NCBI RefSeq assembly: GCF_036588685.1
Contig: NC_086376.1
Coordinates: 71,403,630 to 71,467,629 of the forward strand
Source: Mytilus trossulus
Taxonomy: Eukaryota
Direction: 5' to 3'
Length of the DNA stretch: 64,000 nt
Both the position numbers and the translations under genes were made by a program. The notes beneath the pieces are model-generated. The model did not search any database. It worked only from the letters and a program-made list of their open reading frames with translations, and was not told the DNA's origin. Positions 17,816-64,000 of the stretch are shown one piece after another (position 1 is the stretch's first letter; each line of letters opens with the position of its first letter).

Positions 17816-20800
17816 ATGGCAACCATCCCTGGATCTGCTGGATTGCCGTTGCTAGGCGACAGATCATATGACTTCTATAAAGACCCAGTGAAGTTTATGG
17901 AGAAAAACATCAGTTACTACAAGAACAGAAATTTTATTGGAAGATTTCTGAATAAATCAACAGTGTTTGTTGGATGCAACAAAACTTTGAAATGTTTACT
18001 GACAGGTTTGTTGTTTTAGTAATAATTATCTGTGTAAAACTCTTACTTTTAGAGATTTTATAATAATTAATCACTAACTGCCAGATTTTGTAGTGTTGCC
18101 TCTCATAGTGTGGCCATTCATCACTAACTGCCAGATTTGTAGATTTGTCCCCCATGTTCCATCACTTGCCAGATTTGTAGAGTTTTCTCCCATACATCAC
18201 TAACACCAAATTTGTAGAGTTGTCTCCCATACATCAATAACTGCCATATTTGTAGAGTTGTCTCCCATATTCCAATACCTACCAAATGTTAAGAGTTGTC
18301 TTCCATACATCACTTACTGCCAGGCTTATAGATTTGTATCCCACATTTCATTTATTGCCATAATATAGAGTGACTCAGAGGCACATTTCCCCCCGTTTAA
18401 TTAAGGACAGGTATACTAATAGTGTTTTTTTTTTATATATTTTCAGAAGAGGCAGATAAACTTGATCTGGGATATAAAATGTTCATGGGAGACATCTATG
18501 GTGACAACATTTTATTTACTGATGGTGAGAAGATTATTTTTCAGAATATAATCTAAAGGTTTTACATAACAACATCTTTAATAGTGTATAGTTTAGAACA
18601 GTTTTGGTAATTGATAAGTTTCATGAAGGGATATGGGGCTACCTTCTGTTGTTCTGACAGAAACCCATTAGCCACCACTATTTATCATTATGCCTTCCAT
18701 TATTGATCTGGTTTTCAGTACATTATAGCACATAACAAAGGCTTATGATTATAATCTAGTTGTGATCTTTCTTGTCAAACTGACATATATAGTATAAACA
18801 AATTTCAAACAGGATCATGTAAATTAGTTATCTTGAATGTTGGGGCAGTTCTTTAACTGTTTTCTTTATTACAATTTAACCTTTTTAGTGTGAACATCTA
18901 TCTGTGAGCACAAACCAACTTTCAGTTACTCACAAAATCAAATGTAAAGAAAAACAATGAATGCAAGAAACTAAAACTTGTCACAGTACAAACTGATTTT
19001 AGACATTGAGTGGTATCAAGTGCTATTGGAGAGTAGGCTAATACAGAATGGCATTGGCATCTGTAGTGTATCATGTGCCCAGTGGTCAAATCTGGGAATG
19101 CATTAAATTCATGTTAAGTTTCTTCTTTGAATTTCAGGTTTGGACATGGTATCCTTACGAGAGTCTTTAATCCTACTGTTTACCCCTGAAGCTGTTTCTA
19201 CTTATCAAGAGACAATCAAACATGTGGTGACAAACTTTATACACAAAATAGATACGGAGTAAGTACAGATAATCAAACATGTGGTGACAAACTTTATACA
19301 CAAAATAGATACAGAGTAAGTACAGATAATCAAACATGTGGTGACAAACTTTATACACAAAATAGATACAGAGTAAGTATAGATAATCAAACATGTGGTG
19401 ACAAACTTTATACACAAAATAGATACGGAGTAAGTATAGATAATCAAACATGTGGTGACAAACTTTATACACAAAATAGATACGGAGTAAGTATAGACAA
19501 TCAAACATGTGGTGACAAACTTTATACACAAAATAGATACGGAGTAAGTATAGATAATCAAACATGTGGTGACAAACTTTATACACAAAATAGATACGGA
19601 GTAAGTATAGACAATCAAACATGTGGTGACAAACTTTATACACAAAATAGATACAGAGTAAGTACAGATAATCAAACATGTGGTGACAAACTTTATACAC
19701 AAAATAGATACAGAGTAAGTACAGATAATCAAACATGTGGTGACAAACTTTATACACAAAATAGATACAGAGTAAGTACAGATAATCAAACATGTGGTGA
19801 CAAACTTTATACACAAAATAGATACGGAGTAAGTACAGATAATCACTACAGATGCAGGTCTTTATAGTTTCTTTTCCACAAATTAAATTGCTAGAATACA
19901 AGTGTTTTTTTCAACTTACCTTAAATTTCTCAAGTTTAGGAAGGTTGAAAATTGACTCAAACTTCTGAATTCCTGATTAATGTAATATTTGACCTTCATT
20001 AGAGTTAAAATTTTAATCTCAAGAATTTAATCCAAAAAACTCTGCAAAGAACTGAGGTTAATAAACTCTGCAAGACCTTCCTGAAGGCTTGTTGATATCA
20101 AAATACTTAGAGGTGGTATGATTGCAAATGATACATCTTTCAACCATGGTCCAAATGATTTGAATATAATCAACTTAAATTCACTGTAGTGTCTTTAACA
20201 ATGAGCAAAATCCATAACTCATAACTAGTCAGCTATAGAAGATCTTTTTTTTTCAAATAAGATCCCTCATTATTCATCTTTGTTTTGTAGGGAGATAGGA
20301 AATTAAATGAAATTTGTATTTGGTATGAAAAAATACTGACCAGTATGTACTCCCCTCTGTAAAAGAGAACATTCAAATAAGTGATGAAAATCTTCACCAT
20401 CTGAAATAAATGATAATACACTCACAGTTTAAATTGTCTCCCCTGTTAGGCCAAAAAAAATATATGTCTGTTTACGGTTACTTGACTGACACTATTTTCA
20501 TCGCTGACCCTAAGCCATTTTATTTCCGTGGTAAAGTGAAAAATAAACTAAACTCGTCTCTAAAGTGAAGATAGTGTTGCCTGATACATCCCAATGTTCA
20601 TAATCGTGAATATGATAGCTGTTTTAAGGAAATTCGCTACTCGTGTGATGTAATAAACATTTTTCCGCCATATTTTTCCAACCAATATCAAAAGGAAATA
20701 ATCCAATCATTAAAATTACAGGTAAAGTCTGCCCATGATCAACAGATGACAAGACGAAACCGCACACTCAAAATCATGTCATAAAAAATAAATATGATAA

Positions 20801-27800: not shown

Positions 27801-28459
27801 TGGGACACATAACTTAATTTTTGCTTCAAGTTTAGCTAGTCAGGATTCATTCACTTTTATGGTCACATTAAAGAATCAGGTAGGCATGTTTAGCTGATTC
27901 ACAATATATATTTGACACATTCCCCATTTCCTTTCTCAATTTTATTAAATTTGTGATTTTTATTGCTATTAATTATGTACATTTGTGAACTCACATTTAG
28001 TCTCTCTTTATTTACATTTCAAACAGCTGCTGGTCAGTATGTGTTTCAGACATGATTGGACATTTGAAAAAATCAAAGTGCTTTGAAGCAATTATGGGTA
28101 ACATTTTGCATGAAAAAAGTAATTAGAAATATAGATTTTCAAATATTTTGAAAAAAATCAAAGTATTTACAGTTTTAATCAAAAATTGTTTGAAGTTGAA
28201 CATTACACAGAAAATATTAGACCAATTTATCAGACTTAACATGCTTAAGAATCAGAAATGGAAAACAGCATTACATGTATGTTATAAAGTTTTAAAGATT
28301 TTTTTTAATTTGAAGAATATTTATTTTATTTAGACTTACTACCTTATAGAGATTAAATAACATTATGCAGATTTATAACTGGAAATCACTGGTTTATTTT
28401 ACCTATAGAAACTAGTAGATGAATTGTTCAATTGTTAAAATATGTATAGATAGAATAGT

Positions 28460-28838
28460 TTTTATTCAGTGTAACATGTGTTTATTCAGTGTTACATCTG
28501 ATGATTAAATGTAACATGTTTATTCAGTGTAACATGTGTTTATTCAGTGTAACATGTGTTTATTCAGTGTAACATGTGTTTATTCAGTGTAACATGTGTT
28601 TATTCAGTGTAACATATGTTTATTCAGTGAAACATGTTTATTCAGTGTAACATGTGTTTATTCGGTGTTACATCTGATGATTAAATGTAACATGTTTATT
28701 CAGTGTAACATATGTTTATTCAATGTAACATGTTTATTCAGTGTAACATGTCTTTATTCAGTGTAATGTATGTTTATTAAATGTAACATATGTTTATTCA
28801 GTGTAACATATGTATGTTTATTAAAAATGTAACATGTC
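28460..28838. repeat. ~20-bp minisatellite (TTTATTCAGTGTAACATGTG)n
   Basis: Roughly 18 units of 18-24 bp. The variant block GTTACATCTGATGATTAAATGTAAC occurs twice. Confidence 0.92.
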
Positions 28839-40100: not shown

Positions 40101-43100
40101 ATTTCGAATAAACAAACATAATATGTCAAAAAGCTAAAACTATTTTAAATTTAAAAGAAATAAATACGACTTTTCTAGATATGAACTTACTGCCGGTATT
40201 ATATTAAAAATATTTCGGGAATTTTTCATTTTGGGCATCAGAAGATTATATATAATTCTATTTATAATATGACTAACAATTCTAGAGAAAGAATTTGTGA
40301 AAGCTCAGTCAATGATCAATTTTAATATGTGAGTTATATGGGCTTCTGTTGCATCTGTGTTTTGCATACCATTGTATCATTTGGGGGAGAAAATTGTCAT
40401 TAAATCAAACTATTTCTGATTATCAAAATGAAACATCAGTCCAGATTTTAAATTAAAAAAGAAATGTCTTTTTATTTTTATTCCCAGAAAGTTTTTATGA
40501 CTTCTGTAGACATGTGAAAAACTGTCCTTGCTTTATTATAAGAAACCTTGGGATTGGAATATATTAACTGATTCTTAATCTTGCAAATAAGTGAAGATAC
40601 TTATCTCACAAAAATATCCTTCTTTACATTGTATCACACTTTCTTCACAGGTGATATAAAAGTTAAGGTGGTACCTAACACCTTAACTAAAATTAATTTG
40701 GCTCGTTTAATTTTCTTAAAATTTTGACAAAGTATTTACTTTGACCCTTTGACAAAAATATAAAAAAAAAAAAAAAATTGAACTAACCGTTTAATCAGAA
40801 AAATTACACTGGTTATATAGCAGTTTGACAAACACTTATTTTGATCATTGAGAAGCTTAATATTCCCTTAAGAACACAACGTCATTAAAGCAATCTGCTG
40901 ATTTACAGAGTTATCTCCCTGTAGTGTTAGGTACCACCTAAATAAACAAGAGTGCACACGCTGAAATGTCTAGCCTTCTTTACTAATCATTGATATTATG
41001 TTGATAGACCTAAATATAAAGCTTTACTACAACTGTCACATAAACTCAACATTGATCAATAAACCATGAAAATGAGGTCAAGGTCAGATGAACCATGCCA
41101 GGCAGACATGTACAGCTAACAATTCTTCAAAACAACAAATATAGTTGACTTATTGCTAATAAATTAGGAAAAACAGACCAAAACACAAACACTTAACACT
41201 TAGTAATGGGTCGTGAAAATGAGGTCAAGGTCAAATAAAACCTGCGTAACAGACATATAGATCATAAAATATTTTCATACACCAAATATAGTTGACCTAT
41301 TTGCATAAAGTATTAGAAAAATAGTCCAAAACTCAAAAACTTAACTTTGACCACTGAACAATGAAAATGAGGTCAAGGTCAGATGACACCTGTCAGCTAG
41401 ACATGTACACCTTACAATCATTCCATACGCCAAATATAGCAGACCTATTGCATATAGTATAAGAAAAACAGACCAAAACACAAAAACTTAACTATAACCA
41501 CTGAACCATGAAAATGAGGTCAAGGTCAGATGACACCTGTCAGGTAGACATGTACACCTTACAATCATTCCATACACCAAATATAGTAGACCTATTGCAT
41601 ATAGTATAAGAAAAACAGACCAAAACACAAAAACTTAACTATAACTACTGAACCATGAAAATGAGGTCAAGGTCAGGTGACACCTGCCAGTTGGACATGT
41701 ACACCTTACAGTCCTTCCATACACCGAATATACTAGACCTATTGCTTATAGTATCTGAGATATGGACTTAACCACCAAAACTTAACCTTGTTCACTGATC
41801 CATGAAATGAGGTCGAGGTCAAGTGAAAACTGTCTGACGGGCATGAGGACCTTGCAAGGTACGCACATAACTAATATAGTTATCCAATTACTTATAATAA
41901 GAGAGAATTTAACATTACAAAAAATCTTAACTTTTTTTCAAGTAGTCACTGAACCATGAAAATGAGGTCAAGGACATTGGACATGTGACTGGTGGAAAGT
42001 TCGTAACATGAGGCATTTATATACAAAGTATGAAGCATCCAGGTCTTCTACCTTCTAAAATATAAAGCTTTTAAGAAGTTAGCTAACGCTGCCGCCCCCG
42101 TAGCCGCCGCCCCCGGATCACTATCCCTATGTCGAGCTTTCTGCAACAAAAGTTGCAGGCTCTACAAAAAGTATAGCTTTTCTGCTTATATGGAAAACAA
42201 ATTAAAATTAATAAAAAAGACTTCTATTAGAAAATAACATAGTTAAAACTTATTCTACTTTATTAAAAGTTAAAATGAGTATACAAGTAAATTAATGTAT
42301 TAAAAAAATCATTAATTATAAAAGTTAAAAGTAGAGTGAGAATTAGTTTTCCTCATAAAGCATGCACTGATTGTAAGAAAAGCAAAATATTTAGCAATCT
42401 ACAATGTAACAATGATATAACCTGTAGTCCAGGCCTTCAGTTCCTGATACCGTTTCAGCAAATCTTTCTGAAGATTTTTCACCTGGACAAATAAATTGTT
42501 TAATAAGCATATGTTAAAATCAAAGCTGTGCCGAAGGATAGTCCTCATGACAGCTGTTTCTCTTAACCTTTAACCTTTAACTTTTCTATTTTTTTCAATA
42601 ATATTTGTAAAAGAAAAGACAATATTTCATGACATCAAAACTCAATGTCATCTTGGAAATTTATTGAAAATACTATTAAAAAAATTTTCATCAAGCAAAT
42701 GTTCACCATATTTATACAATATATTCATATCAATAAGAAGATTTCCTTTTGATCAGAAATACGATTGACATAAAGGTGATAGTGAAAAGGTAAATATCTG
42801 GAAGGGACTGCAAAAACAGTGATTATATATCTAAGGCAGTGACATGCAAAGCATGTGGATACAAATATATGTAAGCTGTGTTGTTAAATATAATTAATAT
42901 TTTTTGGTTGCATTTATTAATATATACAAAAAAAAAAGAAAAAAGAACTCAATGTAACTATAGTCTATTACAATGTTTTTAATTATTTTAAACCATGCTA
43001 AAGAGGGGTAAAAAGGGAGGAAAGGTGAAATTTCAACACAAAGCAGCAGTATCAATCTTTCTACAAATCTATCTGAAGGGGGAGGAAAAGGTTGGCCACT

Positions 43101-58500: not shown

Positions 58501-59290
58501 ACAATAAGACAATAAGACAATAAGACAATATTTTATTCGCACAAACACATTTACATTAAATGGTTATGGCATACAAAATTAAGACAATAAACGTACAATA
58601 GTTAAATTGATTACAATTATATTAGAGTGACAGTGGTATTCATAACAAAGAAGAAAAAAGGCTATAAATATCAACAGTTAACACATTATTAATGTTCATG
58701 AACAATTGAAAAAAGAGCACAAACAAAAATTAGGTTGGCATTGCATATTAAAAGAAATACAAGTTATACAGATGTTCTTAATAAAAGACAATCATTAATA
58801 TACTTTATGGTGATTTTTATAATGACTGGTAGACTGCTATTTAAAAGTACAGTCAAATGCTTAAGTGTTATAGTGGACTGTAATTTAATAAAATTGAAAT
58901 TAAGATTTTTATTAATATTTTGTATATAGGTATCCCTTAATGATGAATAACATGGACAGATTGAGAAGAAATGGTATTCATCCTCAATTTCTTGTCTGTT
59001 ACAGGATAAGCAAATGCGTTTACTTCTTTCAATGTTGGTATAACGCCCTCTTTCAATTGCTAGGGAATGTGCACTTAGTTTAAATTTACTGAAAACTGAT
59101 CGGTCAGTTTTGAATTTACATATATCAATATATGGGGGCCTTTTCCTAATTCTTTTCGTATGACAAAAGAAATTTAATTTTTCACATTTATTGATAGAAC
59201 AATTTATAATTTGATAAGCCTGGTCATAGATTCTTTGTTGGATACTATTTATGTGATATTTTAAATTAAAAGTATCAAAAGTTACATGAA
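58500..59290 (-). mobile_element. 5'-truncated LINE 3' end with C-terminal Cys/His motif and (TATTGTCT)n tail
   Basis: The minus strand encodes RSVFSKFKLSAHSLAIERGRYTNIERSKRICLSCNRQEIEDEYHFFSICPCYSSLRDTY. AATAAA is followed by an 8-nt tandem tail at 58501-58530. Confidence 0.82.
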
Positions 59291-60829
59291 TTTTTTTCTG
59301 CGAAAACCGTACATTATTGTAAAGGGTATAAAATGATGTGGAGTTTTACAAGTTTCAAAATCTGGCTTGTTATTCATGATATATTCCATGAAATTGTAGC
59401 AGATGGGTGTGAGATATCTCTCACCTTTATTGAAAACGGAAATGTTATACGAATGTCATGGTGAGAGGTTTAGATTTCTATAAAACCAGGTTTAATCCAC
59501 CATTTTCTGCATAAGAAAATGCCTGTTCCAAGTCTGTTATCTATTCGTGAGATGTGTTGAGCTTTTGATTTTGCCTTTTGTTTACAGACTTTCCGTTTTG
59601 AAATTCAGTTGAGTTCAGTATTTGTTTTTCTTTTCTACATTCCTACAATCATATTTTACTTCCCCGGTTTTAAGTGATTTTGTAAAGATAATAGTTATAC
59701 TTGGTGCTATCTCGTTTGCTAGTTCTTTTAATGGTTTCAGAGGTTATGAACCTGATGCTAAATTTGGATACATTTTTGGAAAATATTCAGCATTACATTT
59801 TCTGTGATATTGAGCTATTCCGCTGATGGGTATTGGCCTAGCATATGATGAGATTTGAATTTATTTGAACTACAACTTTCCTTGAAAAGACTGCAGATTG
59901 AAACTGCTTATTCAGGATGGTAGCTTGGTTTACATGATGAAAGTGTAGAACTTCAGCACAACGCCGCTGGTTTCCGTCACAATATTAGAATAATTTGTTT
60001 GAAAATGTAGTAGATCCTACCCCATTTCTGAATGTTTCAAATCGTATTTTAGGACTGAGCTGTAGACAAATAGACAAGAAATGTTCAGTTGTTATGTTGC
60101 ATTTGTTAACTTGTTACAGGTTCTCTAATGTAAATCACAAATTTAACATTGTAAATAAATTGACCTTTGGATCGACTTGAGAGTCTGCAAATTAAACATC
60201 ATCAAAGATACTAGACTAATTATTGAATACGTTAGACGCGCATTTCGTCTACACAAGACTAGAAAAGTATAACAATATGTCTGACCAAAAGTTTAGGTCA
60301 TAAGATGGCATACAAGCCATCTCTTCAAGAAAATAAAATCTACATCTAGTTGCTTGTATCATTCGCCTAGCAAACATTTGCAATATTAACGAAGAAGCAC
60401 AACTTCTGCTCGATCAACATAAGACATATAGTTTACACAACACAACACAACACAACATAGGAAACTAAAGACTGAGCAAACACCAGAGAATGACATCAGG
60501 TAATCAAGAAATTACATATCCTGGTTTACATCTGGCACATGTCGTGCTGCCGTGACATGGAAGTACAAACTCAATGATAAGTCTAATCAAGTACTAGTAC
60601 CTCACATTCGAGAAAAAGATAACGATATTATTGTTATATTATAGTTCGTTTCTATGCGTGTTACCTTTTAATGTTGTGTAACTTGTGTTTCTATTGTGTT
60701 GTAGTACTCTTATATTTGATGAGTTTCTCTCAATTTCCGTTTGCAACCCGGATTTGCTTTTCCCTCAATCGATTTATGAATTTTGAGCAGCGATATACTG
60801 TTGCCTTTATTTTATGGTTACCATTTTTT

Positions 60830-61720
60830 TTCATATCCGTGGTCATCTGATGATGGGAGTTTTTAACGACCTTGACTGGCTGTACAGCCCTCGCACAGTC
60901 TGTCATCTGTGAGACAGATGATTGGTTTTATAGCCTTTGTAAGCAGTAACCCTATATCAAGAACATCATGTTAAAAAATCCAAGCTCTGAAAATCGTATC
61001 AGTTTGGAGGTATATACTTCATATGCAGTCACTGCTGGAATGCAACTACATACAAATGCGAAATGACAATTAGGGAAACTAGAATAATCTCTTTTGTCAT
61101 AAAGTATTGTTCTAGGCCGACTCTCATTCGTTATCATCTAGATGGTGTCAAGATATGAGACATACTCAACTGTATCGGTTGTATCCTTAATTTCAAGTAG
61201 GATGGGATAATAAAAGTAGTATACCGGTGTTTAAGAGTTATAAATCAATTGATGACTGAGGCTTTGAATTCCTCAGTGAACCGATCTTATCTATAAAGCT
61301 CAACACAAAGTCAAAAGATTATTCTAATCTCTTTTCATTCTTCCTTAGAAGCTCCTGTATGAAGTAACTCATGAATAAAGGAAAATTCGACAAGAAGAGG
61401 AGCACAATTTGTTCCCATTGGAGTGCAGATTCTTCTTTGAAAAAAACGTCCTTCAAACGTGACACACATGCTGTCAATCAAGAAATTAAGCATGTTGTTG
61501 TTTTCATCCGAGTATTTCTTGTTTGTATGAAAGTGATTTTTGCACCCCTTTCTAAGATTAGATGCGTGTAGCTACGTTAACTATTCGTTTATATGAATCA
61601 AAACAGGATTAATTCTTTTAATTTGTCTTTAATTTGGAATGGGGAATACTTTTATCGAGAGATTTTGCAAGAAGAAATAGACTTATATTTATGTATTATT
61701 TGAATTTGTTTCAGTATCAA
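60830..61720 (-). mobile_element. Decayed Penelope-like element reverse transcriptase
   Basis: Motifs MLNFLID..., PMGTNCAPLL, and LYDKRDYSSFP...CSCIPAVTAYEVYTSKLIRFS, disrupted by frameshifts. Confidence 0.8.
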
Positions 61721-63689: not shown

Positions 63690-64000
63690 TTCACTTACTC
63701 CCTCATGCAAAGCTCTGATTCCTTTCACGGATTTGGCTATACTTTTTGGACTTTTTGGATTATAGCTCGTCATCTTTTATATAAGCTTTGGATTTCAAAT
63801 ATTTTGGCCACGAGCATCACTGAAGAGACATGTATTGTCGAAATGCGCATCTGGTGCAAGAAAATTGGTACCGTTAATTTTATTACTACCACTGGGTCGA
63901 TGCCTCTGCTGGTGGACTATTAGTCCCCGAGGGTATCACCAGTCCAGTAGCCAGTACTTCGGTTCTGGCATGAAAATACGGATTTTTTGTGTTATCAAAA
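63690..64000 (+). mobile_element. Hammerhead-bearing repeat (Penelope pLTR- or retrozyme-like), runs off the right edge
   Basis: GC- and CpG-richer block containing the ribozyme. The downstream CCACTG...GGTGGACTATTAGTCCCCGAGGG segment resembles a decayed copy at about 10900-11260. Confidence 0.6.
63814..63857 (+). ncRNA. Minimal type I hammerhead ribozyme
   Basis: GCATCA (stem I) CTGAAGA (CUGANGA core) GACA-TGTAT-TGTC (stem II) GAAA TGCGCA (palindromic stem III) TC (AUC cleavage triplet, cut after 63851) TGGTGC (stem I', one G-U pair). Confidence 0.85.

Follow-up and report, generated by a model that had tools for sequence, protein, structure and literature searches.

The window analysed here is a stretch of 64,000 nucleotides from Mytilus trossulus (contig NC_086376.1). 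Close to its end lies a retrozyme insertion with one hammerhead ribozyme, about 2 kb from a relic of a Naiad reverse transcriptase (RT) on the opposite strand. The features of this region, in window positions, are as follows.

60922 to 61651, minus strand: degraded remnant of a Naiad RT, 70% identical to intact Naiads; an insertion of its own and no part of the retrozyme
63698 to 64000 and on to the equivalent of 64170, plus strand: 5'-truncated retrozyme insertion with one 349-bp unit and a partial second unit
63814 to 63857, plus strand: type I hammerhead ribozyme, an Rfam RF00163 match with core and paired stems, predicted cut after C63851
63843 to 63850, plus strand: stem III palindrome of 8 nt, AUGCGCAU, predicted as 2 bp and a loop in the monomer and as an 8-bp duplex in the dimer
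63852 to 63884, plus strand: stretch of 33 nt from the cut site to the fixed insertion 3' end, with a U-rich end
63885 to 63951, plus strand: leader common to the Naiad 5' start, with a bulged stem-loop at 63891-63948; likely an RT docking or start signal, judged from sequence match and fold

Stem I of the ribozyme is formed by 63814-63819 and 63852-63857 (6 bp, one of them G-U) and stem II by 63827-63830 and 63836-63839. The CUGAAGA core at 63820-63826, GAAA at 63840-63843 and the AUC triplet are intact, which confirms the core nucleotides, stems and coordinates given in a first-pass annotation of the sequence. That annotation had proposed a search with type I hammerhead models; in a 211-nt scan, Rfam Hammerhead_1 (RF00163) indeed matched 63814-63857 with 31.2 bits (E 3e-6), slightly short of the gathering score of 34, and the elements that define RF00163 membership, the core CUGANGA, GAAA and NUH together with stems I-III, are all present. 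The hammerhead was not detected in Rfam scans of the whole window, of 1 kb, or at the gathering threshold. A loose core pattern had 12 matches in the window, a number equalled in 19 of 100 shuffles and thus not above chance, and the free-fold MFE structure of 63800-63870 was not the hammerhead fold (z 0.6). The proof that the hammerhead at 63814-63857 is real is its recurrence across the genome: the exact 32-nt core has 3,816 copies, compared with 0 for the reversed control, hammerheads with the same stem III class number 5,612, and the general hammerhead pattern has 39,910 matches against 7 in the control. Eight copies were hand-picked to represent three families and one subfamily; in the alignment of their stems, pairing holds in all 112 cells, and both sides change at 7 of the 14 pairs. 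The stems do therefore covary among copies, one of the points on which the first-pass annotation had made its reading depend.

That annotation had called the ribozyme minimal. According to the available sections of PMC4209133, the canonical metazoan type I motif has a helix I of 6 bp, a helix II of 4 bp and a helix III of 1-2 bp with a palindromic loop, and by these definitions the motif is canonical rather than a min-HHR. The min-HHRs of PLE (Penelope-like element) pLTRs share with it the type I topology, the palindromic stem III region and the dimer model, but they lack helix III, or a loop 3 beyond the conserved bases, whereas stem III here has six non-core bases forming 2 bp and a palindromic loop.

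The ribozyme sits in a repeat with a tandem period of 350-351 bp and a GC content of 37-39%, which occurs both as single copies and as tandem arrays. No protein-coding frame for its own movement was found across the repeat unit, only short chance frames. A hammerhead within tandem repeats of 150-450 bp with GC below 50% is what characterises metazoan non-LTR retrozymes, and this repeat has that form. Members of the family have a median identity of 94.7% (60 blast matches in 80 loci), which supports the earlier view of a young element. A sister family has a unit of 354 bp and is 71% identical to the 350-bp family.

It is very unlikely that either the ribozyme or its family is new. The repeat very likely corresponds to the published mussel non-LTR retrozyme, to which it was matched by unit size, copy number and the presence of a sister family, not by sequence. 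For M. galloprovincialis, the accessible part of Cervera and de la Pena 2020 (PMC7229834) reports two similar retrozyme families with units of 350-390 bp (GenBank MN642551-MN642576) that together contain about 5,000 hammerheads, and abundant circular RNA. The likeness extends to the type I hammerhead, non-coding tandem repeats of that size with low GC, thousands of copies and expression. The differences are that a mobiliser, a fixed 3' end and a Naiad-derived leader are absent from the account in that part of the paper, and that type I hammerheads number about 40,000 in the present assembly, 8 times the figure published for the 2016 mussel assembly, and fall into three or more repeat families (350, 354 and 550-573 bp). 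A motif text search of papers gave no match to the hammerhead or retrozyme sequence.

The insertion at this locus ends about 170 bp beyond the window, within its second unit. This second unit has no hammerhead, and the junction lies at the cut site across 3 nt of microhomology; a similar junction was seen at L241. No target-site duplication was evident by eye at the 63698 locus. The earlier suggestion to look beyond 64000 for a second hammerhead copy or an RT or GIY-YIG frame yielded neither in the 8.4 kb past that position. In the available text of Li et al. 2026, an active locus is one with two consecutive units with complete hammerheads, an arrangement that is absent here and present elsewhere in the family. 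Since the locus has one ribozyme and a second unit without one, it would release no circle; it appears to be an end product rather than an active source, and the description "possibly active" probably does not apply to this copy.

Other sequences in and around the window were also recorded. Exons of a REV1-like gene lie past the window end on the minus strand (L001 2267-3047 and L021 3366-8610), with matches to REV1_C (Pfam E 5e-5 and 0.04, neither reaching the cut-off) and UBM; its UBM-coding stretch is tandemly repeated, and the retrozyme lies about 290 bp past its last exon on the opposite strand. Unrelated tandem repeats occur at 19096-19959 (57 bp), 28421-28838 (20 bp) and 41037-41743 (147 bp). 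A 193-aa frame at 58764-59345 (minus strand), which by eye we take to resemble the C-terminal end of LINE ORF2, had no Pfam match.

Expression was examined in about 6% of one RNA run with the same species label, in which 2,037 reads matched the retrozyme family, mostly in the sense of the ribozyme strand. These reads stem from the family, and the ribozyme strand is the one mainly transcribed. The set included 353 reads that wrapped around the unit, which fits tandem DNA as well as circles, and no piling up of read ends at the cut site was found in this run; in the available account of Poseidon of Anolis (PMC11167929), reads ending at the cut site are likewise absent. Letters private to the copy in the window were nearly absent from the reads (the other letter in 752/764, 674/680 and 298/302), and the 5' flank of the locus had no read depth, in a run that need not come from the same individual.

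The self-complementary stem III UGCGCA described earlier is present, and stem III is palindromic in the sister families too. The palindromic hexamers TGCGCA, CGCGCG, TCCGGA and TCTAGA made up 78 of the 89 motifs present across 80 loci; half of these loci (40) had been selected for the first hexamer. The innermost stem III pair, which is impossible in a monomer hairpin, nonetheless changes from C-G to T-A. Among the first 100 of 3,968 copies listed for the family with the 550-573-bp unit, the innermost two bases were CG in 87, TA in 12 and AA in 1, so the palindrome is kept at these bases in 99 of those 100 copies, with 0 single-change intermediates. The TA form of this stem III has 727 copies in the genome, and the switch may have been one event that was later amplified. 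In fold prediction with two copies, the best structure was a double hammerhead (-27.3 kcal/mol versus -7.4 for two monomers), and circular monomer folds were mildly better than shuffles (z -0.8 to -2.5, 40 shuffles). Because a pair that can form only in the dimer covaries and the double hammerhead is the best predicted fold, the family likely cleaves as dimers. The proposal of dimer cleavage made in the first-pass annotation therefore stands as far as the palindrome favours dimers. According to the accessible part of PMC7229834, however, a mussel retrozyme monomer construct cleaves at a rate of about 0.1 per min, so that cleavage does not strictly depend on a dimer in cis.

The ends of insertions were compared in 40 loci, drawn from the top of the list of exact-core matches on contig C1. 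The distance from the cut to the downstream 3' end is 31-36 nt in 32 of them, including 22 with exactly 33 nt, whereas 5' ends are scattered across loci; the number of ribozymes per insertion ranges from 1 to 5 across the family. Reverse transcription that always begins at one point leaves this pattern of fixed 3' and ragged 5' ends. The same loci bear on another explanation, in which the repeat spreads at the DNA level as a satellite, by unequal crossover or by excision followed by reinsertion, and carries the ribozyme along. Long homogeneous arrays do exist and may grow in this way, but a satellite does not fit the fixed and ragged ends, the dispersed copies with a single ribozyme in 34 of the 40 loci, or the weak enrichment of short target duplications (at least 4 nt in 12 of 32 loci, against a permutation mean of 3.8), and we regard it as very improbable.

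Copies whose 5' end falls at the cut site showed no clear excess. About 6 of 30 boundaries at the cut site (110 matches) and about 2 of 30 at a control site (200 matches) were true when judged by eye; a script had flagged 7 and 9. Tail-only inserts are therefore rare, and since copies seldom stop at the cut site, the template would usually be a circle or an uncut RNA.

The first-pass annotation had taken the ribozyme for the terminus of a Penelope element that also left the nearby RT relic. The relic is of PLE type, and its intact relative L034 shows a GIY-YIG domain at 40-76 (E 0.036), an RT at 551-761 (E 7e-6) and visible CxC and DKA motifs, the layout given for Naiads in the available part of PMC8557442 (N-terminal GIY-YIG, CxC, DKA, C-terminal RT). 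Of 40 hammerhead loci, 16 have a Naiad RT fragment within 5 kb, compared with 8 of 40 control loci (one of which touches a family copy at its edge), a difference that is not significant (p 0.087) and comes with mixed orientation. A pLTR would continue on the same strand into an RT-endonuclease frame; here the relic lies on the opposite strand, and no such frame follows downstream. Moreover, the repeat is about 95% identical to its own family, whereas the relic is 70% identical to intact Naiads, and other repeats stand between relic and ribozyme. Naiads are without canonical hammerheads in the accessible sections of PMC8557442, and no hammerhead core was found within 400 nt upstream of 30 Naiad leaders. 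At L039 (2697-5981) a Naiad stands inside a retrozyme unit, inserted at a TA-rich stretch, with unit positions 76-87 on both sides. The reading of the ribozyme as a pLTR terminus of the element that left the relic is thus largely refuted by strand, identity, spacing and leaders without a hammerhead core, and its remaining likelihood is very small. The link to Penelope-like elements suggested in the first-pass annotation holds instead at the level of the family, through the leader that the retrozymes share with Naiads.

The leader matched the 5' start of Naiad family A, the family of the relic's intact relatives, over 69 nt with 87% identity (E 1e-20), and the homology stopped there. The Naiad A variant has 114 genome copies. 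A Naiad frame on the same strand follows it at 27 of 30 loci; immediately upstream, 24 of 30 rows carry the 3' end of the preceding Naiad copy (5 rows are one leader array). Naiad B, with intact frames of 1,056 aa and 4.28-kb tandems, opens with the leader motif and a 24-nt hairpin directly after the T-rich end of the previous copy; its motif score of 48.8 exceeded everything seen in 5,000 shuffles (up to 30.9) and in 548 other windows (up to 23.9). Retrozyme and Naiad leaders have one predicted bulged stem-loop in common (z -2.3 to -3.9), and both sides of the outer stem are altered at 3 pairs, a result reached in 155 of 500 shuffles of the 6 rows and so not above shuffles. The Rfam scan of 211 nt found no family for the leader. 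In a comparison by eye, the leader showed no fit to HDV-like or twister layouts.

Counted as distinct ends, terminal copies end 4-7 nt before the leader stem in 54 of 73 cases in this retrozyme family, 20 of 32 in the sister retrozyme family, 31 of 39 in Naiad A and 14 of 15 in Naiad B. All four elements end in T-rich runs; their upstream sequences are unrelated, yet their ends lie at one distance from the stem. A common signal at the insertion end marks a non-autonomous partner, and the leader match and end offsets provide such a signal. As far as the available part of Craig et al. 2021 (PMC8557442) describes them, Naiads resemble the retrozyme in the 5' leader, partial tandems, 5' truncation and the same end distance from the leader stem; they differ in encoding GIY-YIG and RT, whereas the retrozyme repeat encodes nothing and its units show no 3'-end similarity to Naiad A.

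Further variants of the leader and its surroundings were observed. A UUCG hairpin after the leader at 63950-63969 has a stem that differs between the two retrozyme families with pairing kept, and it is absent from Naiad leaders. At L325-L329, a 78-bp Naiad leader alone forms a tandem array upstream of a Naiad frame. A Naiad B subfamily (L187-L190, L202, L203) carries within its 3' UTR 29 nt that match the 3' tail of the sister retrozyme. A diverged leader-like motif at L145 6784-6850 stands after the apparent 3' end of another repeat family, a piece of which also occurs at window position 60796; this more distant variant did not fold into the same stem-loop (z 0.8).

The third hammerhead family (550-573-bp unit; L152, L153, L094, L195) has only the ribozyme core in common with the others. 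No leader match was found in its 573-bp unit, and not all retrozymes of this genome therefore use the leader. An AUA cut triplet is common in it, and in L195 it adjoins a 901-aa PLE with a C-terminal GIY-YIG. This family may use a different helper.

To explain the shared leader at the insertion end, we propose, with a probability of about 0.7, that the Naiad RT binds the leader stem-loop and initiates at a point about 6 nt upstream, on non-LTR retrozyme RNA that carries the leader. The Naiad RT is a likely mobiliser because the leader stands at the insertion end and because a Penelope-like RT has been reported to initiate internally: according to the available part of Frangieh et al. 2024 (PMC11167929), the Poseidon RT initiates internally in vitro and depends on RNA lying 3' of the start; it cuts AT-rich DNA, and it also works on RNA that the hammerhead has left uncut. 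Poseidon of Anolis thus resembles the proposed system in having a hammerhead upstream of an internal start that depends on downstream RNA, and in its AT-rich targets. It differs in being autonomous, with a C-terminal endonuclease, in belonging to another clade and in starting inside an AC-rich stem-loop, whereas the retrozyme start is predicted just before the stem.

The sharing of the leader could reflect descent or capture, and the leader could have a promoter role. Docking has as its main rival a reading in which the retrozyme captured an internal promoter or 5' UTR from Naiad; the leader would then drive transcription and mark the unit boundary, with the 3' end arising from U-rich termination or processing and a Naiad or another PLE copying from the free RNA end. 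The internal promoter of Penelope and Chlamys-3 spans the boundary between pLTR and body in the accessible text of PMC8557442, and the T-rich ends and good expression of the family would suit this explanation as well. On the other hand, the paired changes in the leader point to RNA structure, the spacing between end and stem is the same in four elements whose upstream sequences are unrelated, and the Poseidon work provides a case of a PLE that initiates upstream of the RNA region it binds. We therefore consider a captured promoter unlikely, although the most serious of the alternatives.

Still less probable is that a canonical PLE with a hammerhead, of Neptune or Poseidon type, moves the repeat through a pLTR-like ribozyme end and that the Naiad leader is a passenger. 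Homology to pLTRs is reported for 24 of 57 Xenopus families in the available part of bioRxiv 2026.07.22.740005, and PLEs with C-terminal GIY-YIG and intact frames are present in this genome. However, in a search in which the best 150 of 615 candidates were scored, 30 GIY-YIG and 23 longer PLE loci matched the unit only as scattered copies, as the third-family core or as the Naiad leader, and none of these loci had a pLTR built of this unit.

Mobilisation by the Naiad RT would then proceed in four steps. First, the family is transcribed, mainly from the ribozyme strand, as the RNA reads show. In tandem transcripts, two hammerheads would pair through the palindromic stem III and excise monomers of about 350 nt, and a host ligase would close these into circles, as published for the mussel family. 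The Naiad protein would next dock on the leader, nick AT-rich DNA and start internally 33 nt past the cut, with copying going back across the cut site on a circle or an uncut multimer. Finally, variable stops would give the observed end pattern, with fixed 3' ends, ragged 5' ends and 1-5 ribozymes per insertion, and an RT that passes the circle junction and runs round would produce tandem copies. Naiad mobilisation in trans, docking and dimer use are proposed here from sequence comparison and predicted folds. With somewhat less assurance, but still on balance, we favour the fuller version of this model, in which Naiads start reverse transcription about 6 nt upstream of their 5' stem-loop, retrozymes captured this start signal 33-41 nt behind a dimer-gated hammerhead, and the circles serve as rolling templates for the Naiad RT.

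Neither the ribozyme nor this particular copy is unusual in itself; the new point is the Naiad leader at the exact insertion end. In the available part of a 2020 review by their discoverers (PMC7761336), animal retrozymes have no conserved motif that reveals the mobilising retrotransposon. PLEs have been proposed in the literature as retrozyme helpers. Li, Clavereau and Pollet (bioRxiv 10.64898/2026.07.22.740005) likewise treat non-LTR retrozymes of vertebrates as non-autonomous partners of PLEs; in the accessible sections of their work the link is pLTR homology in frogs, and mussels or bivalves are not mentioned, whereas here the connection runs through the 5' leader of a clade that lacks hammerheads. 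Our literature search, whose coverage did not extend to most subscription papers and Repbase, found no report of a Naiad leader in retrozymes, and the sources available to us contained no mechanistic study of Naiads. The helper motif identified here stands at the exact insertion end and is common to intact Naiad families, and Naiads dominate bivalve genomes. If the proposal is true, it would name the helper of invertebrate retrozymes and provide a portable signal of about 70 nt for PLE reverse transcription. Two questions, who copies the retrozyme circles and how the telomerase-like RT of PLEs picks its start, would thereby be opened to study with a 70-nt RNA and one protein.
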